This document shows positions 1-19,360 of a DNA stretch of 19,638 nucleotides, piece after piece. The notes below the pieces were generated by a model that saw only the letters and a list, made by a program, of their open reading frames with translations, did not search any database and had not been told where the DNA came from. The position numbers were made by a program, and so were the translations under genes. Position 1 is the first letter of the stretch. Every line of letters begins with the position of its first letter. Source of the stretch: a virus (Duplodnaviria; Heunggongvirae; Uroviricota; Caudoviricetes); IMG/VR virus record IMGVR_UViG_2695420718_000005, positions 1-19,638 of that record; one strand, given 5' to 3'.

Positions 1-89
1 CGATCTGTTGCCCTGGAAAGTTGATCTGAGCTCTCAGTAAATATCAATACGGTTCTGACGAGTCGCTTACAAACAAAAGGCTGGTTAAC

Positions 90-311
90 ATGAAAAAAAT
101 GGCAATTGTCGATAAAAAGGGTCTGGAGTACATTCCTAATATCGATCGTATGATCCGTGAGAAAGAATGTCGGGAGCTAACCACTCTTGCGAACAGCACA
201 CGCTGGAAGCTGGAGAAGGAAGGAAAATTTCCTAAGCGGATCAAGATTGGTTCCACTGCTGTTGCATATCGTCTTTCAGAAGTGCAGGCATGGATTAGGG
301 GAGAGTGGTAA
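90..311 (+). CDS. alpA: AlpA-family (prophage CP4-57-type) HTH transcriptional regulator
   Basis: 73-aa ORF; the stretch RELTTLANSTRWKLEKEGKFPKRIKIGSTAVAYRLSEVQAWI fits the AlpA/Phage_AlpA HTH pattern with a conserved Trp near the C-terminus; AAGG about 10 nt upstream of the ATG. An integrase would be expected upstream, outside the window. Confidence 0.8.
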   Translation: MKKMAIVDKKGLEYIPNIDRMIREKECRELTTLANSTRWKLEKEGKFPKRIKIGSTAVAYRLSEVQAWIRGEW

Positions 312-330
312 GAATTTAGACAGTGGATGT

Positions 331-357
331 AATCCTATGGGGTAAACCCATAGGATT
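331..357. terminator. Perfect 11-bp inverted repeat (aatcctatggg / cccataggatt, 5-nt loop) between convergent genes; possible bidirectional terminator
   Basis: Read directly: lies between the alpA stop (311) and the stop of the minus-strand 449-aa gene (363). No clear U-tract on either side, so intrinsic termination is uncertain. Confidence 0.35.
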
Positions 358-362
358 TGAAA

Positions 363-1712
363 TCACTTAAATTCAAATACGTGCGTAGTTGATGAGATTA
401 TATAATTAGGTGGTAAGTATTGAACTATTTCTCCATCTTCTTCAAAAATATGAATAACTCTTGGGAATAATTCAGGGTGTATAGGATTTAATGCCTTCGG
501 ATTATGAAACATGTATATTGCTGTACACCATGGTTCTTGATATGAAGGTGCATTGACAAGAGCAGTAAAAGGCATTGGGGTACAGCCTTCATCAGTTTTA
601 ATACCTCTAACGATGGATTTGACATTTTTTTGTTCAATCCCTGCCACTACTCCCATCCTATCAAATTTTGGGATGGTGGCATGTGTCGCAAGTAATATGG
701 CTGAGACATTCTCATTTTTATTAGAGCCGAAAAAATTAGATTGTATACTTCGATTTTCAAATAAATGTTGTTCAATTTTACTTCCAGAATCCATATCTAC
801 ACCATACAGATAGCTTTGTAGTGCTGGCATTGATATACTCATCGAAAATCTGCGTGAGTAATCGTGTAAAGCAATAATGAAAGGCTTTCCTTTTGTATGA
901 TCTAGTTCCCAATAGCATAATTTTAAGGGTTCAGGTTTATGCCTAACTTTCTTTAATAGAGTGCGGGCAAATTTGAATGGCATTTGTTCTTTTACATATC
1001 TCTGAAGATCTTCTACTGCCTCATGATCAAGTATCAATTTCTCGGTAGGTTCCTCTTGTTCTGCAACTGTGGCAGCTTCTACAGCAATATCAATGCCATT
1101 TTTTGAGATAATATAATCAGGTTGAGCATAATCTCTGCATATTACGAAATCCATTTCGTAGAAAACTGCGTTTAGATAAAGTTCGAATAAGCGAGAGTTA
1201 AATGAAGCACTCTGGAAATCTCTGATGAATATTCCATCAGGATCTTTACACCAATAAGCTAACTCTTGCATAACAATAAATGCAGGATAGTGTTTGGGTT
1301 CCTCAAGTAGCATTCTTAGATAAACGTTTTTTTTATGTTCTGGAACTTTGGCTAGGAATATTGAAAATGCCGACTCTGATTCGTCACCCTGTATAAAACA
1401 ACCGTTCTTGTGTAGTGATAATAGCTCTGGTATGGCTTTTTCCATATCAGTAATTAAATCATCTTTAGATTCACGGGATACAATTACTTTAATCGCTCTA
1501 AATTTTTTATCTAAATCCCTACCTAGAAATATAGCGTTGTAATCATTATCTATTTTACAAAAAACAATTGTTGCTAAGATCGTGACATCATCCTTTATAA
1601 ATTTGAACCAACAGATTTCCTCCGAAAAGGTTTTTACGTATGGTGTACGACCATAGAAAAATACATCAAATTGTTCTTTACTGATTTCTAGCATTTTGTG
1701 ACTTGTTGTCAT
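363..1712 (-). CDS. Hypothetical 449-aa protein, visibly AT-rich cargo gene; no family recognised
   Basis: Long uninterrupted minus-strand ORF, much more AT-rich than the flanking phage genes; 23 bp downstream of and co-oriented with the RHH gene. No Walker A or other motif I can name confidently; a weak PD-(D/E)xK-like pattern (FVICRD...PDYIIS...IDIAVEAAT) is only suggestive. Confidence 0.7.
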   Translation of the reverse strand: MTTSHKMLEISKEQFDVFFYGRTPYVKTFSEEICWFKFIKDDVTILATIVFCKIDNDYNAIFLGRDLDKKFRAIKVIVSRESKDDLITDMEKAIPELLSLHKNGCFIQGDESESAFSIFLAKVPEHKKNVYLRMLLEEPKHYPAFIVMQELAYWCKDPDGIFIRDFQSASFNSRLFELYLNAVFYEMDFVICRDYAQPDYIISKNGIDIAVEAATVAEQEEPTEKLILDHEAVEDLQRYVKEQMPFKFARTLLKKVRHKPEPLKLCYWELDHTKGKPFIIALHDYSRRFSMSISMPALQSYLYGVDMDSGSKIEQHLFENRSIQSNFFGSNKNENVSAILLATHATIPKFDRMGVVAGIEQKNVKSIVRGIKTDEGCTPMPFTALVNAPSYQEPWCTAIYMFHNPKALNPIHPELFPRVIHIFEEDGEIVQYLPPNYIISSTTHVFEFK

Positions 1713-1735
1713 AGAAGAATCCTTTATGCAAATTA

Positions 1736-1930
1736 TCAGCCTTTAGGTGTTATTCCTTGTTTTATTAGTTCGGCACGAGCCAGTTCTTTTAGCCAGTTAC
1801 CTAAGCTCATCCCTTCTTTGGCAGCGACATTAACCATTTGTTCTTTTAATTCTGGGTTAATACGGACTTGGAATGCTGGTGCTTTACCTGCACCTTTCGG
1901 TTGTTTATCACGTTGAATGATAGTTGACAT
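1736..1930 (-). CDS. Arc/MetJ-type ribbon-helix-helix DNA-binding protein (64 aa)
   Basis: PAFQVRINPELKEQMVNVAAKEGMSLGNWLKELARAEL resembles the Arc-repressor layout (N-terminal beta-strand then two helices); first gene of a two-gene minus-strand operon. Confidence 0.55.
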   Translation of the reverse strand: MSTIIQRDKQPKGAGKAPAFQVRINPELKEQMVNVAAKEGMSLGNWLKELARAELIKQGITPKG

Positions 1931-1952
1931 GTGTGTACCTATTGCTTAGTAT
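1924..1952 (+). promoter_or_regulatory. Candidate sigma70 promoter (TTGACA, 17-nt spacer, TAGTAT) reading rightward into the small-gene/primase operon
   Basis: ttgaca at 1924-1929, 17-nt spacer, tagtat at 1947-1952; overlaps the inverted repeat at 1931-1972. Confidence 0.4.
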
Positions 1953-1972
1953 GATTCTTGATAGGTACACAC
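1931..1972. promoter_or_regulatory. Perfect 12-bp inverted repeat (gtgtgtacctat ... ataggtacacac, 18-bp spacer); candidate operator
   Basis: Read directly; sits immediately 5' of the RHH gene start codon (minus strand) and overlaps the candidate rightward promoter, i.e. in the divergent control region. Confidence 0.45.
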
Positions 1973-2069
1973 CTTATCATGTTTTATTGCTATATAACAA
2001 CGCCCTGCAGTGCTCGCAACACATACAGGGCGTCTAACCACCAACGATAGCAACAGTATCGAGGTAGCT

Positions 2070-2273
2070 ATGAGAAATCATACCACACACCCGCAAGGGC
2101 GGGATTCGCACAACCTGAATAAATACATCTGGCGTTTTATCGCCCTGAGCACCGCACAACCACGCGTAATACACATCGAGGCCGCCAGCGAACAGGAAGC
2201 CCGCCAGCAATCCCCAACTGGCTACGTGATGATATTCGCCGCCCGTATTCGTCAGGAGGTGTGCCGTGCTTAA
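2070..2273 (+). CDS. Hypothetical small protein (67 aa from the internal ATG)
   Basis: ATG at 2070 preceded by GAGG; the longer ORF from 2010 lacks an RBS. Same strand and operon as the downstream coupled genes. Confidence 0.35.
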   Translation: MRNHTTHPQGRDSHNLNKYIWRFIALSTAQPRVIHIEAASEQEARQQSPTGYVMIFAARIRQEVCRA

Positions 2274-2451
2274 AACCTTCCGTGTATTTGCCCGAGCTGT
2301 TAACCCACTGGGCCACACAATTGGTATCACTCAGAACGTGAAGGCTGTTAATGTTCAGACGGCTATTGCTGCGGTGAGAAGCGAATCATCAGAATATGGC
2401 TTATCACAAGTCATTATTTCAGCAGTGTATGAATTAAAAGAGGTGCATTAA
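2266..2451 (+). CDS. Hypothetical small protein (61 aa)
   Basis: GTG start 6 nt after a strong AGGAGG RBS (2254-2259); stop overlaps the next start (ATGA at 2451). Confidence 0.45.
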   Translation: MLKTFRVFARAVNPLGHTIGITQNVKAVNVQTAIAAVRSESSEYGLSQVIISAVYELKEVH

Positions 2452-2642
2452 TGCAGGAAATCACATTACACGAAGCCGCTGAACGTGCGCACCAGACAGA
2501 AATTATTTGCCGCCTTCTTGAGGTATACCCGAACAAAATTACAGATGCTGATATATCCGCGCTGGCGAGCCTACTGGCGCGCCTTTCGGGAAGTGTCGCT
2601 AGTTTCCTGATTGAGGAAGAAAGTAAGCTGGTGGGGGATTAA
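2451..2642 (+). CDS. Hypothetical small protein (63 aa)
   Basis: Start overlaps the upstream stop; stop overlaps the next start; translationally coupled operon. Confidence 0.45.
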   Translation: MQEITLHEAAERAHQTEIICRLLEVYPNKITDADISALASLLARLSGSVASFLIEEESKLVGD

Positions 2643-2864
2643 ATGAATACAGAACGGGAAGTCTTTTTTAAATTGTTAGCATGTGCAGAAAGTTCATTAA
2701 CTTTAAATAATTCAGCAAAAGCAATATTAAATATGTGGCTTGATTGCATAAATGACAATGAAGATGCAAATATTGCTTATGGCCTGTTGTCACTTATTGA
2801 TGAATCAGCAGAAAAACTCAATGACGCAATAAATAGTGCCCTGCTATCAAATAAGTCGAGTTAA
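2643..2864 (+). CDS. Hypothetical small protein (73 aa), AT-rich
   Basis: ORF in the same coupled series. Confidence 0.4.
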   Translation: MNTEREVFFKLLACAESSLTLNNSAKAILNMWLDCINDNEDANIAYGLLSLIDESAEKLNDAINSALLSNKSS

Positions 2865-2881
2865 GTCGAGGAATAAATAAT

Positions 2882-3181
2882 ATGGAAATGAAAAATTCTG
2901 GCTTTATTGCCAGCGGCCCCGCTCGGCCTGAATTTATGAACGGCGATATTTACCGCGATAAATACGGCGGCACGGTAACGATTAAAGGCGTGGCAGAACG
3001 GCGCATCACTTACCGCCGTGAGGGGTATAGCTATGACTGCGTGATGCCTGTTTATCAGTTCCGGCGTGATTTTTCCCTGGTATATGCCGCACCCCGCAGT
3101 AAGCCCATCAGCAGGGAAAAAGCGCGGGGAAACATCCAGAAAATGAAAAGCATGATTAACGCATTCAGGGGCAAAAAATGA
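2882..3181 (+). CDS. Hypothetical protein (99 aa); stop overlaps the primase start
   Basis: ATG at 2882 preceded by gaggaataaataat; the stop overlaps the ATG of the 583-aa gene (ATGA at 3178-3181). Confidence 0.5.
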   Translation: MEMKNSGFIASGPARPEFMNGDIYRDKYGGTVTIKGVAERRITYRREGYSYDCVMPVYQFRRDFSLVYAAPRSKPISREKARGNIQKMKSMINAFRGKK

Positions 3182-4929
3182 AACTGGCACCGAACTTAAA
3201 AAAACAGCCACGCGACAGACTGACAGAGGTAATCATCTTTGCAGGTAGTGATGCGTGGAGCCATGCGAAAGAGTGGCGGGAATGGGCGGGTAAACATATT
3301 GCCGCCGACGATGTGCCGCCTGTCGTGCTGGCTGATGAGCAACTGAAAAATATCACCGATTACCGGATCATTGATGAAGATCGTCAGTGTGTGCGTGTTT
3401 ACCGCGCAGGACATATCACAGAGCACAGCATGACGCAGATTGTTACGTTACTGGCTGTGGCTGGAGTGAAGACCGTACACGAATACGCGGGGATTACTGA
3501 CACCAGCCCAGTGGATTTATCCGAGCAGTTGCCGCGACTCAAAGAGGAATGCGAGCGTGGGGAAAGTCTGGTGCTTAATCTTCCGACGAAGCAAAAGGCG
3601 CAACTTTCACAGATGGCAGACAGTGAACGTGCACAACTACTTGCCGATCGCTTTGATGGTGTGTGTGTTCATGCAGAAAGTGAAATCGTCCACGTATGGC
3701 GCGGCGGGGTATGGTGTCCGGTCAGCACAATGGAGCTGAGCCGCGAAATGGTGGCGATCTATTCAGAGCACAGGGCCACGTTCAGCAAACGTGTAATCAA
3801 TAACGCCGTGGAAGCGTTAAAAGTTATTGCCGACCCCATGGGGGAGCCGTCCGGTGATTTGCTACCGTTCACTAATGGTGTGCTTAACCTGAAAACGGGG
3901 GAATTTTCTCCGCACTCGCCGGAGCACTGGAGCACCACGCACAATGGCATTGAGTACACGCCACCAGTAGCAGGGGAAAACATCCGCGATAATGCGCCAA
4001 ATTTCCATAAATGGCTTGAACATGCTGCAAGAAAAGACCCGCGTAAGATGATGCGTATATGTGCCGCGTTATACATGATTATGGCGAACCGCTACGACTG
4101 GCAGATGTTCATTGAGGCCACCGGAGACGGGGGAAGCGGTAAGAGTACATTTACCCATATTGCCACCCTGCTTGCTGGCAAACAGAACACCGTAAGCGCG
4201 GAGATGACATCACTCGATGATGCAGGAGGGCGCGCGCAGGTTGTCGGGAGTCGTCTTATCGTCCTTGCCGATCAGCCGAAATATACGGGGGAAGGCACGG
4301 GCATCAAGAAAATCACGGGAGGCGATCCCGTTGAAATTAACCCGAAATATGAGAAGCGATTCACGACGATAATAAGGGCGGTGGTACTGGCAACCAATAA
4401 CGACCCGATGATCTTTACCGAACGGGCCGGAGGTGTGTCACGCCGTCGGGTGATTTTCCGGTTCGACAACATTGTAAGGGAGGACGAAAAAGACAAGGAA
4501 TTACCGGAAAAGATAGCGGCAGAAATCCCCGTAATTATCCGCCGCTTGCTGGCTAATTTTGCTGCCCCTGAAAAGGCACGGGCTTTATTACTGGAACAGC
4601 GTGACGGTGATGAAGCTCTGGCAATAAAGCAGCAAACGGATCCGGTTGTTGAGCTTTGCGCGGCGCTGGAGTTTCTGGAGGAAGCTCGTGGGCTAATGAT
4701 GGGCGGTGGTGGTGACACCGTGAAGTACACGACCAGAAACAGCCTTTACCGTGTCTATATGGCCTTCATGGCATACACAGGAAAGGGGAAATGTTTGAGC
4801 GTGAATGAGTTCGGAAAGGCTATGAGGTCAGCGGCGAAAGTTTACGGATATGAATATATTACGCGAAAAGTTAAGGGAGTCACGCAGACCAACGCAACGA
4901 CTACTGATGATTGCGATGCGTTTTTATAA
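3178..4929 (+). CDS. P4-family phage/plasmid primase C-terminal domain / D5-N-like SF3 helicase replication protein (583 aa)
   Basis: Walker A motif GDGGSGKST in the context typical of P4 alpha / PICI Pri-Rep C-terminal helicase domains; immediately followed by an iteron array. Confidence 0.85.
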   Translation: MKLAPNLKKQPRDRLTEVIIFAGSDAWSHAKEWREWAGKHIAADDVPPVVLADEQLKNITDYRIIDEDRQCVRVYRAGHITEHSMTQIVTLLAVAGVKTVHEYAGITDTSPVDLSEQLPRLKEECERGESLVLNLPTKQKAQLSQMADSERAQLLADRFDGVCVHAESEIVHVWRGGVWCPVSTMELSREMVAIYSEHRATFSKRVINNAVEALKVIADPMGEPSGDLLPFTNGVLNLKTGEFSPHSPEHWSTTHNGIEYTPPVAGENIRDNAPNFHKWLEHAARKDPRKMMRICAALYMIMANRYDWQMFIEATGDGGSGKSTFTHIATLLAGKQNTVSAEMTSLDDAGGRAQVVGSRLIVLADQPKYTGEGTGIKKITGGDPVEINPKYEKRFTTIIRAVVLATNNDPMIFTERAGGVSRRRVIFRFDNIVREDEKDKELPEKIAAEIPVIIRRLLANFAAPEKARALLLEQRDGDEALAIKQQTDPVVELCAALEFLEEARGLMMGGGGDTVKYTTRNSLYRVYMAFMAYTGKGKCLSVNEFGKAMRSAAKVYGYEYITRKVKGVTQTNATTTDDCDAFL

Positions 4930-4942
4930 AAAATGGCAATGG

Positions 4943-5171
4943 TTATCTACCTTGTCTACCTGACTGAAAGAAAATACTTTTATTTCAATGTATTAATGCA
5001 GGTAGATAACTATTTTTCACTGTCTACCTGTTATCTACCTTATCTACCCATTTTTGTAGACAGGTAAGGAGACGGGTAGAGATGAGGTAGACAGCTATTT
5101 GGGGCTGTCTACCTCCCTGAAACCCGCGCCATTACTGGCCTGATAACTAATCAGGTAGACAAGGTAGACAA
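4943..5171. repeat. Iteron array (about 11 copies of GGTAGAYA / TRTCTACC in both orientations) with AT-rich flanks; candidate replication origin
   Basis: Read directly: ttatctacc-ttgtctacc (4943-4960), ggtagataa (5001-5009), tgtctacc / ttatctacc / ttatctacc (5021-5048), gtagacagg (5056-5064), ggtagaca (5087-5094), tgtctacc (5106-5113), ggtagacaa-ggtagacaa (5154-5171); AT-rich stretch at 4967-4998. Confidence 0.75.
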
Positions 5172-5218
5172 GGTGGTGGTGCACAAAAAACTTTTTAAAC
5201 GAGGGGGTAAAAATAAAA

Positions 5219-5476
5219 ATGCACACATCAGGAAAACTGAACAAACATATAAAGCCACATTACCGCGCCCTTGATATGGCTGAACACTGGCTAAGGGTGG
5301 CGATTAAGGCAATAGACCGCAACGCCGGGGAAGGATACGCGAAAGCACATCCCGAACTGATAAGCGCATTCATGACAACGGCGGCTGCAAACTTTGCCAC
5401 GCTGACCGAACGGGAGATTGCTGAAGCGGAGGAAGTGACAACAATCAATATTAAGTCCGGAGAGCAGGCAGCATGA
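5219..5476 (+). CDS. Hypothetical protein (85 aa)
   Basis: ORF directly downstream of the iterons; its stop overlaps the ssb start (ATGA at 5473). Confidence 0.5.
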   Translation: MHTSGKLNKHIKPHYRALDMAEHWLRVAIKAIDRNAGEGYAKAHPELISAFMTTAAANFATLTEREIAEAEEVTTINIKSGEQAA

Positions 5477-5922
5477 CGGCGCAAATATCAGTTTACGGGC
5501 GGTTGGTGGACGACCCGCAGACAAAACAGACCAGCAAGGGCACCCCCATGACGCTGGCGCGTATGGCGGTATCACTGCCCTGCAGTCAGTCGGATGACGG
5601 TCTGGCGACGTTGTGGTTATCTGTCCTGGCGTTTGGCAGACAAGCCGACGCGCTGGCAAAGCATCACAAAGGCGAACTCCTGAGCGTGGCGGGTAACATG
5701 CAGATGAGCCAGTGGACTGGACAGAACGGCGAAACGCGGCAGGGCTGGCAGGTTATCGCAGACAGCGTAATCAGTGCGCGATCGGTGCGACCGGGCGGCA
5801 AAAAAGGCCAACAGGGGCAGGCTACTGACGCACTGAACAGAGCAAAACAACAGGCAGATCAGCAAGGAAGCCAGCCACCAGAGGGAGATAATGAGCAATG
5901 GGGAGATGATATCCCGTTTTAA
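5473..5922 (+). CDS. ssb: Single-stranded DNA-binding protein (149 aa)
   Basis: N-terminal OB-fold-like region, Gln/Gly-rich linker and the diagnostic acidic C-terminal tail ending DDIPF (E. coli SSB ends DDDIPF). Confidence 0.85.
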   Translation: MTAQISVYGRLVDDPQTKQTSKGTPMTLARMAVSLPCSQSDDGLATLWLSVLAFGRQADALAKHHKGELLSVAGNMQMSQWTGQNGETRQGWQVIADSVISARSVRPGGKKGQQGQATDALNRAKQQADQQGSQPPEGDNEQWGDDIPF

Positions 5923-5940
5923 ATATTGCCAATAAAAAAA

Positions 5941-5964
5941 GCCGGAAAAAATAAATTTTCCGGC
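5941..5964. other. Palindrome gccggaaaa-aataaa-ttttccggc between ssb and the capsid-like gene
   Basis: Perfect 9-bp arms read directly; could be a terminator-like structure or a protein-binding site. Confidence 0.3.
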
Positions 5965-6138
5965 ATGCTACATAAATCCCGACCAAAGGGAGTGAAGATA
6001 TTAACACTAATTGTCCGCACTGAAGTTGTCACCCCAAAACTTTATACAACATTGCACTCGGTTGCATGTGTTCGCATGACAAATATCGGTGATAGCATAT
6101 ATCCACAATTATTTTTAATGAATGCAAAGAGGATGCGT

Positions 6139-7179
6139 ATGGTTGATTTATATTCGCCTACCCAGCTTGTACAGGTGGTTAATGCTGTAGATGTACAAAA
6201 ACAACTAAATGCGTTGTTTACCAGTTTGTTTTTTACTCGCTCGGTAATGTTTGGATCGCGCGATATTATTCTTGATACAATCGACGATCCAAATATCCCA
6301 ATTGCAGCGTTTTGTTCTCCTATGGTGGGTAGTAAAGTTTCACGTGACGAAGGGTACGAATCAAAAACAATTCGTCCAGGCTATATGAAGCCGAAAAGCA
6401 GCATTGATCCAAATAAGTTAGCTGTGCGCCCTGCTGGTGTATCACCTGAGCAATACAATGCTTTTGGGGCGCGTAATATTAAAGTTAAACAGGCGATTGT
6501 AAATCAAGCTAAAGCTATTCGTGCACGTATTGAATGGCTTGCCGTTCAGGCAATCACAACGGGGAAAAATATCATTGAGGGCGATGGTATTGAACGTTAT
6601 GAGCTGGACTGGAATATTAAACCACAAAATATCATCACTCAGTCTGGCGGTACTGAGTGGTCAGGTAAGGATAAAGAAACTTTTGATCCAAATGATGATA
6701 TTGAGAGCTACGCAGAATTTAGTGAGGGCGTCACTAATATCATCATTATGGGCGGTAATGTATGGAAGAAATACCGTTCATTCAGAGCGATAAAAGAGGC
6801 TCTGGATACCCGTCGTGGTTCTAATTCCGAACTGGAAACGGCCCTTAAAGACCTTGGTGATTCGGTGAGTTTTAAAGGATATATGGGCGATGTTGCGATT
6901 GTTGTTTACAGCGGGCGTTATACCGACGAGGACGGAACTGAAAAACATTTCCTTGATCCTGATTTGATGGTGCTTGGCAATACGGCTCTTCAGGGGATTG
7001 TCGCCTATGGCGGTATTCAGGATCCGGAGCTAATCCGAATGGGGCTGACTAAAGCCGAACTTGCACCGAAAAACTATATTGTGCCTGGTGATCCGGCTAT
7101 TGAATATGTGCAGACACATTCAGCACCACAGCCAATACCGGCCCGCATCAATCGTTTTGTTACCGTTCGCATTGGCTAA
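6139..7179 (+). CDS. Major capsid protein, diverged homologue of lambda gpE (347 aa from the RBS-preceded ATG)
   Basis: Segments PGYMKPK, ITQSGGTEWSGKDKETFDPNDDIESYA and LDTRRGSNSELETALKDLGDSVSFKGYMGDVAIVVYSG align with remembered lambda E; AAAGAGGA RBS before the ATG at 6139. The longer ORF from 5926 has no homology in its extension. Confidence 0.8.
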   Translation: MVDLYSPTQLVQVVNAVDVQKQLNALFTSLFFTRSVMFGSRDIILDTIDDPNIPIAAFCSPMVGSKVSRDEGYESKTIRPGYMKPKSSIDPNKLAVRPAGVSPEQYNAFGARNIKVKQAIVNQAKAIRARIEWLAVQAITTGKNIIEGDGIERYELDWNIKPQNIITQSGGTEWSGKDKETFDPNDDIESYAEFSEGVTNIIIMGGNVWKKYRSFRAIKEALDTRRGSNSELETALKDLGDSVSFKGYMGDVAIVVYSGRYTDEDGTEKHFLDPDLMVLGNTALQGIVAYGGIQDPELIRMGLTKAELAPKNYIVPGDPAIEYVQTHSAPQPIPARINRFVTVRIG

Positions 7180-7188
7180 GGGGGAGCA

Positions 7189-7530
7189 ATGGCTACTCAT
7201 TACACTGAACTCATGGCTGGCACTGAAGCACTGGTGACTACGCTGGGGATATTTTCAGCTAATAAAGGGGTAATTCCTGCATTTACGCCACTGATGCAGG
7301 AAGATGCAACAGGTGCACTGGTGGTATGGGATGGTTCGAGCGTAGGTAAAGCGGTTTATGTTTCCGCTGTACAAATCGACACCGCGAAAAAAACACAGGC
7401 TCAGGTCTATAAGACAGGTGTCTTAAATGTTGATGCTCTGAACTGGCCTGAGTCTGTAAAAGAACTGTCAGTAAAGATTGCAGCGTTTGTTGGCTCAGGT
7501 ATTTCTGTTCAGCCGCTGGCTCGTGTGTAA
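7189..7530 (+). CDS. Head decoration protein, lambda gpD-like (113 aa)
   Basis: PAFTPLMQEDATGALVVWDG, YKTGVLNVDALNWPE and AAFVGSGISV align with remembered lambda D (TPLMLDTSSRKLVAWDG, YKSGTFRYEDVLWPE, TAFAGTAISI); GGGGGAG RBS. Confidence 0.75.
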   Translation: MATHYTELMAGTEALVTTLGIFSANKGVIPAFTPLMQEDATGALVVWDGSSVGKAVYVSAVQIDTAKKTQAQVYKTGVLNVDALNWPESVKELSVKIAAFVGSGISVQPLARV

Positions 7531-7541
7531 AGGGGGATACA

Positions 7542-7925
7542 ATGCAAAATGATTACAATGACCTTAAGCCAATTGCCGAAATGATGTACCCGAATCCAGC
7601 TGTAGAGGAATTAAAAGCTATCGCTGACAAAATGTGTTTAAGCGAGCGCCTTGTTGATATGAATCAGGTGATGGAAATTACAACCCTGAGTCGGCGTACA
7701 CTGCTAAACCTTGAGGCTAGTGGAGAGTTCCCGGAGCGTGTGCAGGTTACGGAAGGGCGTAAGGCCTGGTATTTAAGTGAAGTGATCGACTGGATAAATA
7801 ATATTCCTCGCGCTTCTGAATATTGCCGCGTACCTGTCCCAAAAAAGCCAGATGCGGCGCTATGCCTCAAGATTGAGCGTGTACGCCGCAATGCACGGGA
7901 TGGTCGCTATAAGCTGATTGGTTGA
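7542..7925 (+). CDS. AlpA-like HTH DNA-binding protein with N-terminal extension (127 aa)
   Basis: MEITTLSRRTLLNLEASGEFPERVQV...WYLSEVIDWI fits the AlpA-type HTH pattern; AGGGGGA RBS; located immediately upstream of the cos site. Confidence 0.6.
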   Translation: MQNDYNDLKPIAEMMYPNPAVEELKAIADKMCLSERLVDMNQVMEITTLSRRTLLNLEASGEFPERVQVTEGRKAWYLSEVIDWINNIPRASEYCRVPVPKKPDAALCLKIERVRRNARDGRYKLIG

Positions 7926-7933
7926 TGAAATTA

Positions 7934-7962
7934 GGGCCCGCTCTGGCTGGCGGGTCCTTTCC
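7934..7962 (+). terminator. Candidate intrinsic terminator (gggcccgc-tctggctg-gcgggtcc followed by tttcc)
   Basis: GC-rich imperfect hairpin followed by a short T-run, just after the 127-aa gene stop. Confidence 0.4.
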
Positions 7963-7981
7963 GGCGATCTGACAGGCTACG

Positions 7982-7993
7982 GGGCGTCAGGCG
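7982..7993. other. cosN-equivalent (gggcgtcaggcg), divergent from lambda cosN GGGCGGCGACCT
   Basis: Position and flanks (acg before, cgcgg-attttcgc after) correspond to the lambda cohesive-end region as I recall it; 5 of 12 positions differ. Confidence 0.55.
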
Positions 7994-7998
7994 CGCGG

Positions 7999-8170
7999 AT
8001 TTTCGCTATTTATGAAAATTTTCCGGTTTAAGGCGTTTCCGTTCTTCTTCGTCGTAACTTAATGTTTTTATTTAAAATACCCCCTGAAAAGAAAGGAAAC
8101 GACAGGTGCTGAAAGCGAGCTTTTTGGCCTCTGTCGTTTCCTTTCTCTGTTTTTGTCCGTGGAATGAACA
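7999..8170 (+). promoter_or_regulatory. Lambda-type cosB with Nu1-binding repeats R3, R2, R1 (CGTTTCC / GGAAACG)
   Basis: attttcgctatttatgaaaattttccggtttaaggcgtttccgttcttcttcg ... aaaggaaacgacaggtg ... ctgtcgtttcctttctc matches my recollection of the lambda left end nearly base for base; three CGTTTCC-type repeats read directly. Confidence 0.75.
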
Positions 8171-8722
8171 ATGGAAGTCAACAAAAAGCAGCTGGCTGAC
8201 ATTTTCGGTGCGAGTATCCGTACCATTCAGAACTGGCAGGAACAGGGAATGCCCGTTCTGCGAGGCGGTGGCAAGGGTAATGAGGTGCTTTATGACTCTG
8301 CCGCCGTTATAAGATGGTATGCCGAAAGGGATGCTGAAATTGAGAACGAAAAGCTGCGCCGGGAAGTTGAAGAACTGCGGCAGGCCAGCGAGACAGATCT
8401 CCAGCCAGGGACTATTGAGTACGAACGCCATCGACTTACGCGTGCGCAGGCCGACGCACAGGAACTGAAGAATGCCAGCGAAACAGGTGAGGTAATTGAC
8501 ACTGCATTTGCGACTTATGCCTTGTCGAAATTAACTGGGGAAGTTGGAGCAATCATTGATAGTCTTCCACTTGCGATCTGTCGACAGTTTCCTGGCATGG
8601 AAAAACGGTATCAGGACTTCATTAAGATGGAGGTCAGTAAAGCATTTATTCGAGCTTACCAGATCTCAGATAACATTCCAGATATGGCTGAAAGGTATAT
8701 CAAGGATAATCAGCGAAGTTAA
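8171..8722 (+). CDS. Nu1: Terminase small subunit Nu1 (183 aa); N-terminal DNA-binding half lambda-like, C-terminal half diverged
   Basis: MEVNKKQLADIFGASIRTIQNWQEQGMPVLRGGGKGNEVLYDSAAV... is essentially lambda Nu1; the C-terminal ~70 aa are homologous but diverged. No gpA gene follows. Confidence 0.9.
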   Translation: MEVNKKQLADIFGASIRTIQNWQEQGMPVLRGGGKGNEVLYDSAAVIRWYAERDAEIENEKLRREVEELRQASETDLQPGTIEYERHRLTRAQADAQELKNASETGEVIDTAFATYALSKLTGEVGAIIDSLPLAICRQFPGMEKRYQDFIKMEVSKAFIRAYQISDNIPDMAERYIKDNQRS

Positions 8723-8778
8723 AACAAATGAAACCATAGGTAGGAAGAGTGCTTAGGTGGTTCTTTGTTGCTTAAAAG

Positions 8779-8810
8779 TCGCCAGTAAAACTGGCGATAG
8801 ATTTTATTTG
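8779..8810. terminator. Hairpin tcgccag-taaaa-ctggcga followed by tagattttatttg; candidate bidirectional terminator between Nu1 and the convergent 301-aa gene
   Basis: Perfect 7-bp stem and T-rich tract read directly; lies between convergent gene ends. Confidence 0.45.
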
Positions 8811-8828
8811 TCAAAAGCATTTGACCTT

Positions 8829-9734
8829 TTAAGGTAGTGGTACTATGGATATTTTTCTGTCGTTCCCAAATGAACTTTTAAATAATTTCGCTCTTGGATA
8901 CATTTTAACTAGTGATGCGACTTCATCGAACTCGCTGGCATCAAAAAGAGGACCAAGTATTACAGATTTTAACTCAAAAGGGTGAAATTTTAAGTCGCTA
9001 TATTGACCAGTGCTATTTGGCCTAGCGTAGGTTGAAATTCTCCACTCTCTTTCATATGCCCATTCTTCTGTTTTTATGAATATTATCTCATTATTGATAT
9101 ATTCAATTGACTTATTGTCTGGCATGAAAAGCAACTCGGCCATCCCTTCAGCAGTGTGAGTTAGAGGCATTTCATCTGTGTATTTCATAGGTTTGGCTAT
9201 TAACCAAGCGCTATCCAGAAAGTCTACACAATCAAATTCGATAACTATACCTTTATATTTATCGGCATAGTGATTCCACATAGGAGTGATTATAGGGCTC
9301 TCAGATAAACACAAAATCCTTCTGTTATTAAGCATTCCTCGCCAGACATCTTTCATTTCTTGTATTGCCGCAGGAGCGCCAATCCCAACTGGTGGAATGT
9401 TTACCATTTCTTGAAATCTTTCAATTAATCCTGCGGGTATGCCTAAAGGAAATGACTTTTGGAAATCACTTAGCATTGTTCTAATTCTAGGGTTTAAATT
9501 TTGTATGTCTTCTCTGGGGGTAATCAACTCCGCTATTAACTTGCGGGCTAAAGCTTTGCCAATATTAATTTCGTTAATACCAGGCATAACTTCTCTTGGA
9601 ACATCAAAAGGGTCATTAAATAGGACCGGAGAACTCCATCTAAGGCTGCATGAATCAAGAACAATCTTCGCGGTATTCAACGACATATACTTATAAAATG
9701 TTGAGCGTTCATGCATTCTGTTGGGTGAGCGCAT
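8829..9734 (-). CDS. Hypothetical 301-aa protein, AT-rich moron; motif pattern reminiscent of the DUF2971 family (unverified recollection)
   Basis: Long minus-strand ORF, strongly AT-rich relative to the flanking lambda genes; motifs FYKYMSL, FNDPFD, RILCLSESPIITPMWNHYADKYKGIVIEFD. It occupies the position where lambda A through Nu3, D and E-5' would be. Confidence 0.7.
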   Translation of the reverse strand: MRSPNRMHERSTFYKYMSLNTAKIVLDSCSLRWSSPVLFNDPFDVPREVMPGINEINIGKALARKLIAELITPREDIQNLNPRIRTMLSDFQKSFPLGIPAGLIERFQEMVNIPPVGIGAPAAIQEMKDVWRGMLNNRRILCLSESPIITPMWNHYADKYKGIVIEFDCVDFLDSAWLIAKPMKYTDEMPLTHTAEGMAELLFMPDNKSIEYINNEIIFIKTEEWAYEREWRISTYARPNSTGQYSDLKFHPFELKSVILGPLFDASEFDEVASLVKMYPRAKLFKSSFGNDRKISIVPLP

Positions 9735-9870
9735 AGATTCCTCTTGTTAAATGAGTGATGGTTTTCATCCATGTATTGCACGTTGTATTGCATTCAAGGA
9801 TTTTCCATTTCAATTCTATAGCTAAAACGTAATCAAATCATTCACATCCTTTCATATTTGACTCATGTAG

Positions 9871-10659
9871 CCGAAGCATGAGGTGAATCCGCAGATGACC
9901 CTGCGTCGCCTGCCGGATGAAGATCCGCAGAATCTGGCGGACCCGGCTTACCGCCGCCGTCGCATCATCATGCAGAACATGCGAGACGAAGAGCTGGCCA
10001 TTGCTCAGGTCGAAGAGATGCAGGCAGTTTCTGCTGTGCTTAAGGGCAAATACACCATGACCGGTGAAGCCTTCGATCCGGTTGAGGTGGATATGGGCCG
10101 CAGTGCGGCGAACAACATCACACAGTCCGGTGGTACGGAGTGGAGCAAGCGTGACAAGTCCACGTATGACCCGACCGACGATATCGAAGCCTATGCGCTG
10201 AACGCCAGCGGAGTGGTGAATATCATCGTGTTTGATCCGAAAGGCTGGGCGCTGTTCCGTTCCTTCAAAGCCGTCAAGGAGAAGCTGGATACCCGTCGCG
10301 GCTCTAATTCCGAGCTGGAGACAGCGGTAAAAGACCTGGGCGAAGCGGTGTCCTATAAGGGGATGTATGGCGATACGGCGATCGTCGTGTATTCCGGACA
10401 GTACGTGGAAAACGACGTCAAAAAGAACTTCCTTCCGGACAACACGATGGTGCTGGGGAACTCTCAGGCACGCGGTCTGCGCACCTATGGCTGCATTCAG
10501 GATGCGGACGCACAGCGCGAAGGTATTAACGCCTCTGCCCGCTACCCGAAAAACTGGGTGACCACCGGCGATCCGGCGCGTGAGTTCACCATGATTCAGT
10601 CAGCACCGCTGATGCTGCTGGCTGACCCTGATGCGTTCGTGTCCGTACAACTGGCGTAA
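9871..10659 (+). pseudogene. E: 5'-truncated major capsid gene E (lambda gpE residues ~90 to end)
   Basis: Translation PKHEVNPQMTLRRLPDEDPQNLADPAYRRRRIIMQNMRDEEL... matches lambda E almost residue for residue; homology stops abruptly near 9866-9870, where an in-frame TAG (9868-9870) is present; no proper N-terminus or RBS. Confidence 0.8.
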
Positions 10660-10700
10660 TCATGGCCCTTCGGGGCCATTTTCTCTCTGTGGAGGAGTCT

Positions 10701-11096
10701 ATGACGAAAGATGAACTGATTGCCCGTCTTCAGGTGCTGGGTGAGCAACTGAACCGTGATGTCAGCCTGACGGGGACGAAAGAAGAACTGGTGCTCCGTG
10801 TGGCAGAGCTGGAAGAGGAGCTTGATGACACGGATGACGCTGCCGGTCAGGACACATCTGTCAGCCCGGAAAATGCGCTGACCGGACATGAAAATGAGGT
10901 TGTATCAGCGCAGCCGGATACCGTGACTGATACGGCTGATCTGGTCACGGTTGTGGCACTGGTGACGCTGCATACTGATGCACTTCACGCCACGCGGGAT
11001 GAGGCTGTGGCATTTGTGCTGCCGGGAACGGCGTTCCGTGTCTCTGCCGGTGTGTCAGCTGAAATGACAGAGCGCGGCCTGGCCAGAATGCAATAA
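10701..11096 (+). CDS. FI: DNA-packaging protein FI (132 aa)
   Basis: MTKDELIARL...ERGLARMQ matches lambda FI; GGAGGA RBS before the ATG at 10701. The ORF-track start at 10662 is an upstream extension. Confidence 0.9.
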   Translation: MTKDELIARLQVLGEQLNRDVSLTGTKEELVLRVAELEEELDDTDDAAGQDTSVSPENALTGHENEVVSAQPDTVTDTADLVTVVALVTLHTDALHATRDEAVAFVLPGTAFRVSAGVSAEMTERGLARMQ

Positions 11097-11107
11097 CGGG
11101 AGGCGCT

Positions 11108-11461
11108 GTGGCTGATTTCGATAACCTGTTCGATGCTGCCATTGCCCGCGCCGATGAAACGATACGCGGGTACATGGGAACGTCAGCCACCATGACATCC
11201 GGTGAGCAGTCCGGTGCTGTGATACGTGGTGTTTTTGATGACCCTGAAAATATCAGCTATGCCGGACAGGGCGTGCGCGTTGAAGGCTCCAGCCCGTCCC
11301 TGTTTGTCCGGACTGATGATGTGCGGCAGCTGCGGCGCGGCGACACGCTGACCATCGGTGAGGAAAACTTCTGGATAGACCGGATTTCGCCGGATGATGG
11401 CGGAAGCTGTCATCTCTGGCTTGGGCGGGGCGTACCGCCTGCCGTTAACCGTCGCCGCTGA
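11108..11461 (+). CDS. FII: Head-tail joining protein FII (117 aa)
   Basis: MADFDNLFDAAIARADETIRGYMGTSAT... matches lambda FII; GTG start after GGGAGG. Confidence 0.9.
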   Translation: MADFDNLFDAAIARADETIRGYMGTSATMTSGEQSGAVIRGVFDDPENISYAGQGVRVEGSSPSLFVRTDDVRQLRRGDTLTIGEENFWIDRISPDDGGSCHLWLGRGVPPAVNRRR

Positions 11462-11472
11462 AAGGGGGATGT

Positions 11473-12051
11473 ATGGCCATAAAAGGTCTTGAGCAGGCCG
11501 TTGAAAACCTCAGTCGTATCAGCAGAGCGGCGGTGCCCGGTGCCGCCGCAATGGCCATTAACCGCGTTGCTTCATCCGCGATATCGCAGTCGGCGTCACA
11601 GGTTGCCCGTGAGACAAAGGTACGCCGGAAACTGGTAAAGGAAAGGGCCAGGCTGAAAAGGGCCACGGTCAAAAATCCGCAGGCCAGAATCAAGGTTAAC
11701 CGGGGGGATTTGCCCGTAATAAAGCTGGGTAACGCGCGGATTGTCCTGTCCCGACGCAGGCGTCGTAAAAAGGGGCAGCGTTCAGCCCTGAAAGGTGGCG
11801 GCAGCGTGCTTGTGGTGGGAAACCGTCGTATTCCCGGCGCGTTTATTCAGCAACTGAAACATGGCCGCTGGCATGTCATGCAGCGTGTGGCCGGGAAAAA
11901 CCGTTACCCCATTGATGTGGTGAAAATCCCGATGGCGGTGCCGCTGACCACGGCGTTTAAACAGAATATTGAGCGGATACGGCGTGAGCGTCTTCCGAAA
12001 GAGCTGGGCTATGCGCTGCAGCATCAACTGAGGATGGTAATAAAGCGATGA
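11473..12051 (+). CDS. Z: Tail terminator/completion protein Z (192 aa)
   Basis: MAIKGLEQAVENLSRIS... matches lambda Z; AAGGGGGA RBS. Confidence 0.9.
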   Translation: MAIKGLEQAVENLSRISRAAVPGAAAMAINRVASSAISQSASQVARETKVRRKLVKERARLKRATVKNPQARIKVNRGDLPVIKLGNARIVLSRRRRRKKGQRSALKGGGSVLVVGNRRIPGAFIQQLKHGRWHVMQRVAGKNRYPIDVVKIPMAVPLTTAFKQNIERIRRERLPKELGYALQHQLRMVIKR

Positions 12052-12443
12052 AACATACTGAACTCCGTGCAGCCGTACTGGATGCACTGGAGAAGCATGA
12101 CACCGGGGCGACGCTTTTTGATGGTCGCCCCGCTGTTTTTGATGAGGAAGATTTTCCGGCAATTGCCGTTTATCTCACCGGCGCTGAATACACGGGCGAA
12201 GAGCTGGACAGCGATACCTGGCAGGCGGAGCTGCATATTGAAGTTTTCCTGCCTGCTCAGGTGCCGGATTCAGAGCTGGATGCGTGGATGGAGTCCCGGA
12301 TTTATCCGGTGATGAGCGATATCCCGGCACTGTCAGATTTGATCACCAGTATGGTGGCCAGTGGCTATGACTACCGGCGCGACGATGATGCGGGCCTGTG
12401 GAGTTCAGCCGATCTGACTTATGTCATTACCTATGAAATGTGA
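12048..12443 (+). CDS. U: Tail tube terminator protein U (131 aa)
   Basis: [22 protein letters not shown]... matches lambda U; start overlaps the Z stop. Confidence 0.9.
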
Positions 12444-12450
12444 GGACGCT

Positions 12451-13191
12451 ATGCCTGTACCAAATCCTACAATGCCGGTGAAAGGTGCCGGGACCACCCT
12501 GTGGGTTTATAAGGGGAGCGGTGACCCTTATGCGAACCCGCTTTCAGACGTTGACTGGTCGCGTCTGGCAAAAGTTAAAGACCTGACGCCCGGCGAACTG
12601 ACCGCTGAGTCCTATGACGACAGCTATCTCGATGATAAAGATGCAGACTGGACTGCGACCGGGCAGGGGCAGAAATCTGCCGGAGATACCAGCTTCACGC
12701 TGGCGTGGATGCCCGGAGAGCAGGGGCAGCAGGCGCTGCTGGCGTGGTTTAATGAAGGTGATACCCGTGCCTATAAAATCCGCTTCCCGAACGGCACGGT
12801 CGATGTGTTCCGTGGCTGGGTCAGCAGTATCGGTAAGGCGGTGACGGCGAAGGAAGTGATTACCCGCACGGTGAAGGTCACCAATGTGGGACGTCCGTCG
12901 ATGGCAGAAGATCGCAGCACGGTAACAGCGGCAACCGGCATGACCGTGACGCCTGCCAGCACTTCGGTGGTGAAAGGGCAGAGCACCACGCTGACCGTGG
13001 CATTCCAGCCGGAAGGCGCAACCGACAAGAGCTTCCGTGCGGTGTCAGCGGATAAAACAAAAGCCACCGTGTCGGTCAGTGGTATGACCATCACCGTGAA
13101 TGGCGTTGCTGCAGGCAAGGTCAACATTCCGATTGTATCCGGTAATGGTGAGTTTGCTGCGGTTGCAGAAATCACCGTCACCGCCAGTTAA
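12451..13191 (+). CDS. V: Major tail tube protein V (246 aa)
   Basis: [22 protein letters not shown]... matches lambda V including the C-terminal Ig-like region; GAGGA RBS before the ATG at 12451. The ORF-track start at 12421 is rejected. Confidence 0.9.
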
Positions 13192-13206
13192 TCCGGAGAG
13201 TCAGAG

Positions 13207-13629
13207 ATGTTCCTGAAAACCGAATCATTTGAACATAACGGTGTGACCGTCACGCTTTCTGAACTGTCAGCCCTGCAGCGTATTGAGCATCTCGCCCTGA
13301 TGAAACGGCAGGCAGAACAGGCGGAGTCAGACAGCAACCGGAAGTTTACTGTGGAAGACGCCATCAGAACCGGCGCGTTTCTGGTGGCGATGTCCCTGTG
13401 GCATAACCATCCGCAGAAGACAAAGCAGCCTTCCATGAATGAAGCCGTTAAACAGATTGAGCAGGAAGTGCTTACCACCTGGCCCACAGAGGCAATTTCT
13501 CATGCTGAAAACGTGGTGTACCGGCTGTCTGGTATGTATGAGTTTGTGGTGAATAATGCCCCTGAACAGGCAGAGGACGCCGGGCCCGCAGAGCCTGTTT
13601 CTGCGGGAAAGTGTTCGACGGTGAGCTGA
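13207..13629 (+). CDS. G: Tail assembly chaperone G (140 aa)
   Basis: MFLKTESFEHNGVTVTLSELSALQRIEHL... matches lambda G. Confidence 0.9.
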   Translation: MFLKTESFEHNGVTVTLSELSALQRIEHLALMKRQAEQAESDSNRKFTVEDAIRTGAFLVAMSLWHNHPQKTKQPSMNEAVKQIEQEVLTTWPTEAISHAENVVYRLSGMYEFVVNNAPEQAEDAGPAEPVSAGKCSTVS

Positions 13630-14045
13630 GTTTTGCCCTGAAACTGGCGCGTGAGATGGGGCGACCCGACTGGCGTGCCATGCTTGCCGGGATGTCATCC
13701 ACGGAGTATGCCGACTGGCACCGCTTTTACAGTACCCATTATTTTCATGATGTTCTGCTGGATATGCACTTTTCCGGGCTGACGTACACCGTGCTCAGCC
13801 TGTTTTTCAGCGATCCGGATATGCATCCGCTGGATTTCAGTCTGCTGAACCGGCGCGAGGCTGACGAAGAGCCTGAAGATGATGTGCTGATGCAGAAAGC
13901 GGCAGGGCTTGCCGGAGGTGTCCGCTTTGGCCCGGACGGGAATGAAGTTATCCCCGCTTCCCCGGATGTGGCGGACATGACGGAGGATGACGTAATGCTG
14001 ATGACAGTATCAGAAGGGATCGCAGGAGGAGTCCGGTATGGCTGA
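13207..14045 (+). CDS. G-T: G-T tail assembly chaperone fusion produced by -1 frameshift (T portion 13611..14045)
   Basis: The -1 frame ORF after the slippery site encodes ...FDGELSFALKLAREMGRPDWRAMLAGMSSTEYADWHRFY..., matching the lambda T region; no independent RBS or start. Confidence 0.8.
13605..13611 (+). promoter_or_regulatory. Programmed -1 ribosomal frameshift slippery heptamer G GGA AAG (G to G-T)
   Basis: GGGAAAG read in the G frame near the 3' end of G; the -1 frame continues as the T ORF to 14045. Confidence 0.8.
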
Positions 14046-18336: not shown

Positions 18337-18662
18337 AAACCTTCCGCTGGAAAGTGAAACCCGGTATGGATGTGGCTTCGGCCCCTTCTGTAAGAAAGGT
18401 GCGCTTTGGTGATGGTTATTTCCAGCGAGCGCCTGCCGGGCTGAATGCCAACCTGAAAACGTACAGCGTGACGCTTTCTGTCCCCCGTGAGGAGGCCACG
18501 GTACTGGAGTCGTTTCTGGCTGAGCACGGGGGCTGGAAAGCCTTTCTGTGGACGCCGCCTTATGAGTGGCGGCAGATAAAGGTGACCTGCGCAAAATGGT
18601 CGTCGCGGGTCAGTATGCTGCGTGTTGAGTTCAGCGCAGAGTTTGAACAGGTGGTTAACTGA
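18333..18662 (+). CDS. M: Minor tail protein M (109 aa)
   Basis: MKTFRWKVKPGMDVAS... matches lambda M; start overlaps the end of H. Confidence 0.9.
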   Translation: MKTFRWKVKPGMDVASAPSVRKVRFGDGYFQRAPAGLNANLKTYSVTLSVPREEATVLESFLAEHGGWKAFLWTPPYEWRQIKVTCAKWSSRVSMLRVEFSAEFEQVVN

Positions 18663-19360
18663 TGCAGGATATCCGGCAGGAAACACTGAATGAATGCACC
18701 CGTGCGGAGCAGTCGGCCAGCGTGGTGCTCTGGGAAATCGACCTGACAGAGGTCGGTGGAGAACGTTATTTTTTCTGTAATCAGCAGAACGAAAAAGGTG
18801 AGCCGGTCACCTGGCAGGGGCGACAGTATCAGCCGTATCCCATTCAGGGGAGTGGTTTTGAACTGAATGGCAAAGGCACCAGTACGCGCCCCACGCTGGC
18901 AGTCTCTAACCTGTACGGCATGGTCACCGGGATGGCGGAAGATCTGCAGAGTCTGGTCGGCGGAACGGTGGTCCGGCGTAAGGTTTATGCCCGTTTTCTG
19001 GATGCAGTGAACTTCGTCAACGGAAACAGCGACGCCGATCCGGAGCAGGAGGTGATCAGCCGCTGGCGCATCGAGCAGTGCAGCGAACTGAGCGCGGTGA
19101 GTGCCTCCTTTGTACTGTCCACGCCGACTGAAACGGATGGCGCTGTTTTTCCGGGTCGTATCATGCTGGCCAACACCTGCACCTGGACCTATCGCGGCGA
19201 TGAGTGCGGTTATCACGGTCCGGCTGTCGCGGATGAATATGACCAGCCGACGTCCGATATCACGAAGGATAAATGCAGCAAATGCCTGAGTGGCTGTAAG
19301 TTCCGCAATAATGTCGGCAACTTTGGCGGCTTCCTTTCCATTAACAAACTTTCGCAGTAA
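18662..19360 (+). CDS. L: Minor tail protein L (232 aa)
   Basis: MQDIRQETLNECTRAEQSASVVLWEIDL... matches lambda L; TGATG overlap with the M stop. Confidence 0.9.
   Translation: MQDIRQETLNECTRAEQSASVVLWEIDLTEVGGERYFFCNQQNEKGEPVTWQGRQYQPYPIQGSGFELNGKGTSTRPTLAVSNLYGMVTGMAEDLQSLVGGTVVRRKVYARFLDAVNFVNGNSDADPEQEVISRWRIEQCSELSAVSASFVLSTPTETDGAVFPGRIMLANTCTWTYRGDECGYHGPAVADEYDQPTSDITKDKCSKCLSGCKFRNNVGNFGGFLSINKLSQ

Follow-up and report, generated by a model that had tools for sequence, protein, structure and literature searches.

Why should a satellite of the phage-inducible chromosomal island (PICI) type run directly into a lambda-type cos site, a Nu1 gene and a series of phage tail genes? This question is raised by the 19,638-nt sequence of the IMG/VR virus record IMGVR_UViG_2695420718_000005, referred to below in its entirety as the window. 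The original prediction, made from the sequence alone, described a satellite-like module fused to lambda DNA and proposed tandem residence beside a decayed prophage, capture of cos, Nu1 and tail genes by a satellite, or a phage-satellite recombinant. The analysis presented here points to an insertion of one element inside a gene of the other. With a probability of about 0.92, positions 71-9878 correspond to a PICI of the helper-embedded type (HE-PICI) from the site group E:Phage_cap_E:80, an element of ~11.2 kb when complete, lodged in E, the gene for the major capsid protein of its lambdoid helper prophage. The cos site, the Nu1-like gene, a DUF2971 gene and an att arm motif lie inside this satellite. 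The 3' part of gene E, the FI/FII genes and the tail genes belong to the helper and are located outside attR.

The gene content on which the question rests is genuine. Pfam and PHROG scans and a repeat count recovered alpA, primase/helicase, iteron origin, ssb, capsid-like genes, cos, Nu1 and tail genes. The left part is indeed a PICI-type satellite with its own cos and Nu1, adjoining lambdoid prophage DNA, and neither a portal nor a large terminase gene is present in the whole window. The border between the two components had however been misplaced: the satellite was thought to end at cos, near position 8000, and the true junction lies at 9869-9878, inside gene E.

This arrangement is best understood from the relatives of the window. 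A megablast search was performed against 5,426 complete Escherichia coli genomes, 47 of which cover at least 80% of the window, and the annotated neighbourhoods were inspected in four of these genomes and in strain NRG857c. On the 5' side, the relatives display the lysis genes of a lambdoid prophage followed by cos, Nu1, A, W, the portal gene, the S49 protease gene, D and a 246-bp fragment encoding the N-terminus of E (hereafter E'). The middle is occupied by a tyrosine integrase gene, the AlpA gene and the entire satellite through cos, Nu1 and a cargo gene. On the 3' side come the other three-quarters of E (hereafter 'E), then FI and the tail genes. The nested layout is present in at least four prophage backgrounds among the complete genomes, and both E' and 'E carry partial-gene annotation in the relatives. 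The portal, large terminase and lysis genes are therefore missing from the window because, in intact relatives, they are located upstream of the satellite integrase, and the tail genes fall outside the element because attR precedes 'E. For the genome from which the window derives, the nested state is presumed from relatives that are 97-99.2% identical to it. What had been proposed as tandem residence is thus a satellite nested inside a helper gene, and the supposed phage-satellite oddity gives way to flanks which, in the relatives, do show a complete lambdoid prophage in a known arrangement.

The limits of the element can be followed to the nucleotide. A 10-bp identity block, AGCCGAAGCA, which contains the crossover region and falls at codon ~82 of gene E, is common to attR of the window (9869-9878, plus strand) and to attL of three relatives (here numbered L001, L003 and L075). 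The left junction of L001 reads GTCAAGCCGAAGCA followed by CTTAGC, and the right junction of the window reads ATGTAGCCGAAGCA followed by TGAGGTG. Downstream of the attR block, codons 83-341 of E are found on the plus strand (9879-10659, with an open reading frame (ORF) at 9883-10659), matching the Pfam Phage_cap_E profile at positions 94-328 only; the gene that precedes the tail cluster is accordingly a head gene fragment, the 3' three-quarters of E. When 'E of the window was joined in silico to E' of a relative, an uninterrupted lambda-E-type protein of 341 residues was obtained, and in silico excision within L075, L001 and L003 likewise restored a 341-residue E. Measured from block to block, the element is 11,189 bp long in L075, 11,123 bp in L001, 11,004 bp in L003 and 11,077 bp in L073, the island of strain NRG857c. 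The genes for AlpA, primase, capsid and Nu1 and the helper genes 'E to L are all encoded on the plus strand, the key genes of the satellite being co-oriented with the late gene that they interrupt.

These observations bear directly on the proposal that an elongated PICI captured cos, Nu1 and the whole lambda tail module, the tails then moving with the satellite. As many as 17 late genes have been captured by some PICIs (PMC10111431), and homologues of capsid, decoration, cos and Nu1 functions have clearly been captured by the satellite of the window. This part of the proposal stands, cos and Nu1 being the satellite's own. The tails, however, are the helper's: attR lies upstream of 'E and leaves FI to L outside the element, the identity blocks are 11.0-11.2 kb apart in four relatives, and the flanking halves of E join into one intact gene. 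Capture of the tail module is consequently highly improbable.

The helper-embedded organization inferred for the window has been described before. Tommasini, Mageeney and Williams reported in 2023 the HE-PICIs, whose first example, Eco567.11capE (hereafter 11capE), is an 11-kb island found in the prophage capsid gene E of E. coli NRG857c, with a 10-bp identity block and a capsid gene of its own; 201 further elements were detected at the same site, which was named E:Phage_cap_E:80 (PMC10111431). In HE-PICIs, a doubled motif, tgTGTATTGCantgTGTATTGCa, flanks the attP centre at a distance of 81 +/- 2 bp on the upstream side and of 132 +/- 2 bp on the downstream side (PMC10111431). The window contains the doubled attP arm motif TGTATTGCacgtTGTATTGC on the plus strand at 9772-9791; the centre of the identity block lies 82 bp downstream of the end of this arm, which is made of doubled TGTATTGC. 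The downstream arm falls beyond the window, and its copy in L001 is found at 13749-13768, ~133 bp from the block centre. The supplement of the same article gives the agccgaagca block for many E:Phage_cap_E:80 elements, with attL and attR flanks identical to those observed here. The late module of the satellite was detected in 365 of the 5,426 complete genomes, a proportion near the published estimate of ~5.4% for HE-PICI carriage among E. coli genomes (PMC10111431). The four zones of an HE-PICI are found in order in the window: AlpA; variable cargo and small genes; DUF4222, primase, origin and SSB (single-stranded DNA-binding protein); and capsid, decoration, second AlpA, cos and Nu1. In the variable zone, the Pfam scan detected no Bro-N domain. 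Of the inward-reading tyrosine integrase gene that marks the upstream end of HE-PICIs, the window retains only the last 18 nt (71-88); L075, which has the same genotype, encodes an integrase of 411 residues. A family that the original prediction could not name is therefore available for this architecture, which is already published, and the puzzle is mostly explained. One primary paper covers these elements, and our literature search found no later functional study of HE-PICIs.

The comparison with 11capE itself can be drawn in detail. From the SSB region through cos, its DNA is 98% identical to the window; at the protein level, AlpA, the decoration protein and the second AlpA show 100% identity between the two elements, and the capsid protein 99.4%. 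Both elements share the integration site in E, the att flanks, the arm motif, the orientation, the size of ~11 kb and the same cos, including a variant cosN discussed below. The differences are concentrated in a few places. The identity block of 11capE reads aacccaagca instead of the AGCCGAAGCA found here and in other group members, its primase is a different allele (48% amino acid identity), and its variable-zone cargo differs, the window copy carrying PD-T7-1. After cos, HEPN and DUF262 genes are present in 11capE and a DUF2971 gene in the window. In addition, only ~12 Nu1 codons are left in 11capE, an element reported to be devoid of terS, the small terminase gene, whereas the window copy has a full Nu1-like gene. 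Finally, the end of an insertion sequence (IS) replaces most of the integrase gene in the window, unlike in 11capE.

Which of the two partners owns the cos-Nu1 region can be decided from the Nu1-like gene (8171-8722, plus strand; Pfam Phage_Nu1, 3.6e-84), whose product of 183 residues is chimeric. Its first ~100 residues are ~99% identical to the Nu1 of the helper, and its C-terminal half is specific to the satellite: no Nu1 in 50,697 phage records matches it at more than 40% identity, and it is 63-80% conserved across diverged satellites embedded in capsid genes (among L089-L099). In these diverged satellites, the N-terminal half consists of an N15-gp1-type domain instead of the lambda type. 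In IMG/VR, the neighbours of this C-terminal half were satellite genes or attR/'E, and no large terminase gene came after it in any instance. The lambda-like DNA to the right of cos spans only ~530 bp (7950-8481, 97% identical to lambda-type phages). The claim that lambda DNA begins at cos thus holds for that segment, and fails for the C-terminal half of Nu1 and for the DUF2971 gene (8829-9734).

Before the relatives were taken into account, the cos-Nu1 region (7950-8722) was attributed to a decayed lambdoid prophage lying beside an unrelated satellite, a segment that starts with A and includes the first quarter of E having been deleted and replaced by the DUF2971 gene. Seen within the window alone, this scenario fits the succession of Nu1, a foreign gene of low G+C content and a 5'-truncated E, and an IMG/VR contig (L082, IMGVR_UViG_2690316188_000012) has the order that it predicts. 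This initial reading, a prophage-own Nu1 with an A-to-E' deletion, was dropped for two reasons: upstream of the satellite integrase, the relatives possess another full set of these genes (Nu1-A-W-B-C-D-E'), and the C-terminal half of Nu1 is not of phage type. Moreover, L082 is the sole case preceded by helper lysis genes, and both the arm motif and the identity block of HE-PICIs are located between the DUF2971 gene and 'E. The scenario is accordingly very unlikely. As for L082, its gene order (helper lysis genes, lambda-type cosN, satellite-type Nu1, DUF2971 gene, attR, 'E) most likely reflects a secondary deletion. Recombination between two copies of the ~530-bp cos-Nu1 repeat, one in the helper and one in the satellite, would remove the helper head genes together with most of the satellite.

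An artefactual junction was also considered, in which the contig would join by misassembly a satellite locus to a prophage locus. The source contig does appear to end in an IS, and draft assemblies can be mis-joined at repeats. The junctions linking cos, Nu1, DUF2971, attR and 'E are however reproduced in 32 complete genomes with this type of Nu1 and in several independent IMG/VR contigs, and the junction at 9869-9878 does not coincide with the edge of a repeat, so that such an error deserves hardly any credence.

The nested position of an HE-PICI carries consequences for both partners, and some of these have been followed experimentally. With 11capE, mitomycin C treatment leads the composite of helper and satellite to excise and replicate, and the satellite excises precisely from ~2 h onwards, as measured by quantitative PCR and deep sequencing (PMC10111431). 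Excision of the satellite is the only way to restore the helper capsid gene (PMC10111431): the satellite offers no replacement sequence, and excision is therefore needed to restore E. Expression of the helper E would thus have to await the departure of the satellite. Helper replication and late transcription would presumably read through the embedded satellite, and the helper terminase would then package satellite DNA at the satellite's own cos.

This cos site (~7950-8170, plus strand) comprises a cosQ-like region, cosN and a lambda-type cosB. Its alignment with the cos sites of the helper covers the cosQ region and cosB, which is near-identical, and continues into Nu1. Recognition by the helper terminase would be expected without an adaptor, because both cosB and the DNA-binding half of Nu1 match those of the helper. 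The 12-nt overhang at cosN is GGGCGTCAGGCG in the satellite (7982-7993) and GGGCGGCGACCT in the helper. These differ at 5 of 12 positions, and the cohesive ends of satellite and helper would therefore not anneal. The variant cosN was found in 56 IMG/VR contigs, of which 50 are satellites and three (L027, L060, L071) have phage-type contexts; in the phage-type contig L060, gpA is 99% identical to that of the helper. The possibility that GGGCGTCAGGCG is a satellite-specific mark, or a block to cutting by the helper, was ruled out by these phage-type contigs, and the variant is a tolerated natural polymorphism and not a barrier.

The satellite also encodes two head proteins. A paralogue of lambda E, the major capsid protein of 346 residues, is encoded at 6139-7179 (plus strand; Pfam Phage_cap_E, 2e-41), and a paralogue of lambda D, the head-decoration protein, at 7189-7530 (plus strand; Pfam HDPD, 4.4e-15). 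A longer reading of the former, an ORF of 417 residues starting with TTG at 5926, was rejected as an over-extension of the capsid gene. The capsid protein is 41.5% identical to the reconstructed E of the helper and the decoration protein 38% identical to the helper D. These paralogues may build heads dedicated to the satellite, completed with the portal, protease/scaffold and tails of the helper. Knockout of a PICI capsid gene is reported to have been tolerated (PMC10111431).

The chimeric Nu1 suggests a further, more speculative contribution. The full 183-residue type is present in 32 of the 5,426 complete genomes, a minority of the ~365 that have the late module. In lambda Nu1, gpA is bound by the part to which the C-terminal ~80 residues correspond. 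It is possible, if rather doubtful, that the full-length gene specifies a functional, modular small terminase of the satellite and not a captured relic. Such a protein could compete or hetero-oligomerise with the helper Nu1 at the shared cosB, which would either link satellite DNA to the large terminase of the helper or poison the packaging of the helper, and would offer a route of packaging redirection distinct from the one provided by Rpp proteins.

Several points weigh against the HE-PICI assignment and the life cycle attached to it. First, attL, E' and the integrase beyond its last 18 nt are not in the window. Second, no virions were recovered from any HE-PICI (PMC10111431); packaging, capsid use and transfer are putative. 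Third, a nonsense codon at position 22 is common to five of the 11 E. coli copies of the Nu1-like gene that were examined; with these stops and with its absence from 11capE, the gene cannot be essential. Fourth, the only sister contig that crosses the IS, L074, shows an unrelated far side, and the composite of helper and satellite may be broken in this lineage or the contig mis-joined.

This last point concerns the left edge of the window. The integrase had been expected to lie simply beyond that edge; instead, positions 1-70 (plus strand) are the right end of ISCro1, a member of the IS66 family, matching at 100% the ends of ISCro1 copies from over 1800 E. coli genomes, and the remaining 18 nt of the integrase gene, stop codon included (71-88, plus strand), align with int of L001, L003 and L073 at its 3' end. 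The IS end thus cuts int 18 nt before its stop. Positions 1-11712 are 100% identical to contig CYBZ01000026.1, whose sequence extends into the IS by another 42 nt before stopping. The sister contig L074, with 99.96% identity, crosses the full ISCro1 (2,699 bp) and continues into an unrelated island of the AlpA/Hha/YagK type. A simple IS insertion in int would be expected to leave the 8-bp duplication AAACAAAA on both sides of the IS; around the IS of L074, neither an 8-bp target duplication nor int nor E' was found. This suggests that the L074 junction is an IS-mediated rearrangement or a mis-join at a repeat. In L075, the genotype of the window is found at 99.2% identity with both int and E' intact. 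Its integrase and the head genes of the helper probably no longer adjoin the window copy, which may be stranded and immobile.

The rest of the satellite was annotated from the ORF listing and from Pfam, PHROG, NCBIfam and PADLOC scans. The integration zone contains the AlpA-family regulator/excisionase (90-311, plus strand; Pfam Phage_AlpA, 2.7e-15). It is followed on the minus strand by PD-T7-1, a single-gene anti-phage system of 449 residues (363-1712; PADLOC, 1e-153, full length). The neighbouring variable zone (1736-2864, mixed strands), known from PHROG families and from RefSeq, which annotates an identical region in H46, contains small genes: a HicB-like ORF (1736-1930, minus strand), an Icd-like ORF (2010-2273; NCBIfam phage_ICD_like, 1.1e-19) and three further small ORFs. 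The G+C content of the PD-T7-1 zone is ~0.35-0.38; this low-G+C variable slot holds different genes in other copies, and the version with PD-T7-1 was encountered in only two of the 5,426 complete genomes. The second variable slot, between cos/Nu1 and attR, is also of low G+C content and accommodates HEPN and DUF262 genes, a restriction endonuclease gene or other genes in other copies. In the window it contains the minus-strand DUF2971 gene (301 residues; Pfam DUF2971), which PADLOC classifies as the candidate defence gene PDC-S31 (2.5e-32). On the basis of these profile matches, a predicted defence gene (PD-T7-1) occupies one variable slot and a candidate defence gene (PDC-S31/DUF2971) the other.

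The replication zone begins with a DUF4222 protein (2882-3181, plus strand; Pfam) and the primase/helicase (3178-4929, plus strand; Pfam D5_N, DUF5906 and Pox_D5; PHROG DNA primase, 1.3e-160). The iteron-type replication origin (4940-5175) consists of ~14 copies of AGGTAGACA/TGTCTACCT in both orientations and an AT-rich stretch. A small ORF (5219-5476) and the SSB gene (5473-5922; Pfam SSB, 2.1e-15) follow on the plus strand, the pair being assigned to PHROG 1231 and 44. A second AlpA-like winged helix-turn-helix protein, of 127 residues, is encoded directly 5' of cos (7542-7925, plus strand; Pfam Phage_AlpA, 7.6e-9). A scan for promoters and terminators in 7500-10000 returned no excess over the shuffled expectation. 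A GC-rich hairpin with a T-run at 8778-8798, between the convergent Nu1-like and DUF2971 genes, may nevertheless be a terminator, although the count of such structures is not above that expectation.

Beyond attR, the helper late genes FI, FII, Z, U, V, G, T, H, M and L (10662-19360, plus strand; Pfam) are collinear with those of complete lambdoid prophages. The tail cluster had been described as complete; its completeness is not callable, the window ending just after L. The tape-measure gene H (14038-18336) encodes 1,432 residues instead of the ~853 found in relatives and holds an in-frame, diverged partial tandem duplication with a period of ~1.73 kb and 71-90% identity. If this duplicated H is functional, a much longer tail would be predicted.

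The nested insertion explains in a simple manner why a satellite stands beside cos, Nu1 and tail genes: the cos site and head genes of the helper are located ~11 kb upstream and its tail genes downstream. Recognizing this nesting prevents such loci from being mis-annotated as novel phage-satellite hybrids or as deleted prophages. The window copy leaves the published picture unchanged and adds leads on HE-PICI packaging and cargo, namely a chimeric small terminase in a minority genotype and anti-phage genes in both variable slots.

These features can be set against those of the other satellite classes. EcCICFT073 and the Gram-negative cos-type PICIs share with the window the order of int, alpA, primase, origin and late genes, cos packaging and the dependence on a lambdoid helper (PMC6739421). 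EcCICFT073 however occupies a chromosomal site and not its helper (Fillol-Salom et al. 2018, 2019; PMC6739421), and it possesses a non-phage cosB and an Rpp protein that retargets the helper small terminase (PMC6739421). The satellite of the window has, in contrast, a helper-type cosB, a Nu1 paralogue and no Rpp detectable from sequence: a phmmer search of the PDB with the 127-residue protein encoded 5' of cos returned AlpA (8c3t) and no RppC at E<=1. Neither of the two features that define Rpp-type cos PICIs, an Rpp protein and a non-phage cosB, was thus found.

The capsid-forming PICIs (cf-PICIs) likewise encode their own capsid protein and small terminase and take their tails from the helper (Alqurainy et al., bioRxiv 10.1101/2022.09.08.507074). 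They differ by a complete HK97-type head and packaging set comprising protease, portal, connectors, HNH protein and large terminase (bioRxiv 10.1101/2022.09.08.507074), and none of the corresponding Pfam families (protease, portal, head-tail connector, HNH, large terminase) was detected in 1-9878. The window satellite has only lambda E-like, D-like and Nu1 genes and must therefore use the portal, protease/scaffold and large terminase of the helper. Affiliation with the P4-like satellites was rejected on the basis of the Pfam, PHROG and Rfam scans: the Sid, Psu and Delta genes gave no Pfam or PHROG match, and the C4/isrK or CI/seqA immunity RNAs no Rfam match at E<=0.1 in 1-10000. The pac-type pathogenicity islands of Staphylococcus aureus (SaPIs) encode a small terminase (TerS) that partners the helper large terminase, and the SaPI TerS recognises a SaPI-specific pac site. 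In the Nu1-like protein of the window, the predicted DNA-binding half is of the helper type, and the divergent half is the putative gpA-contacting one.

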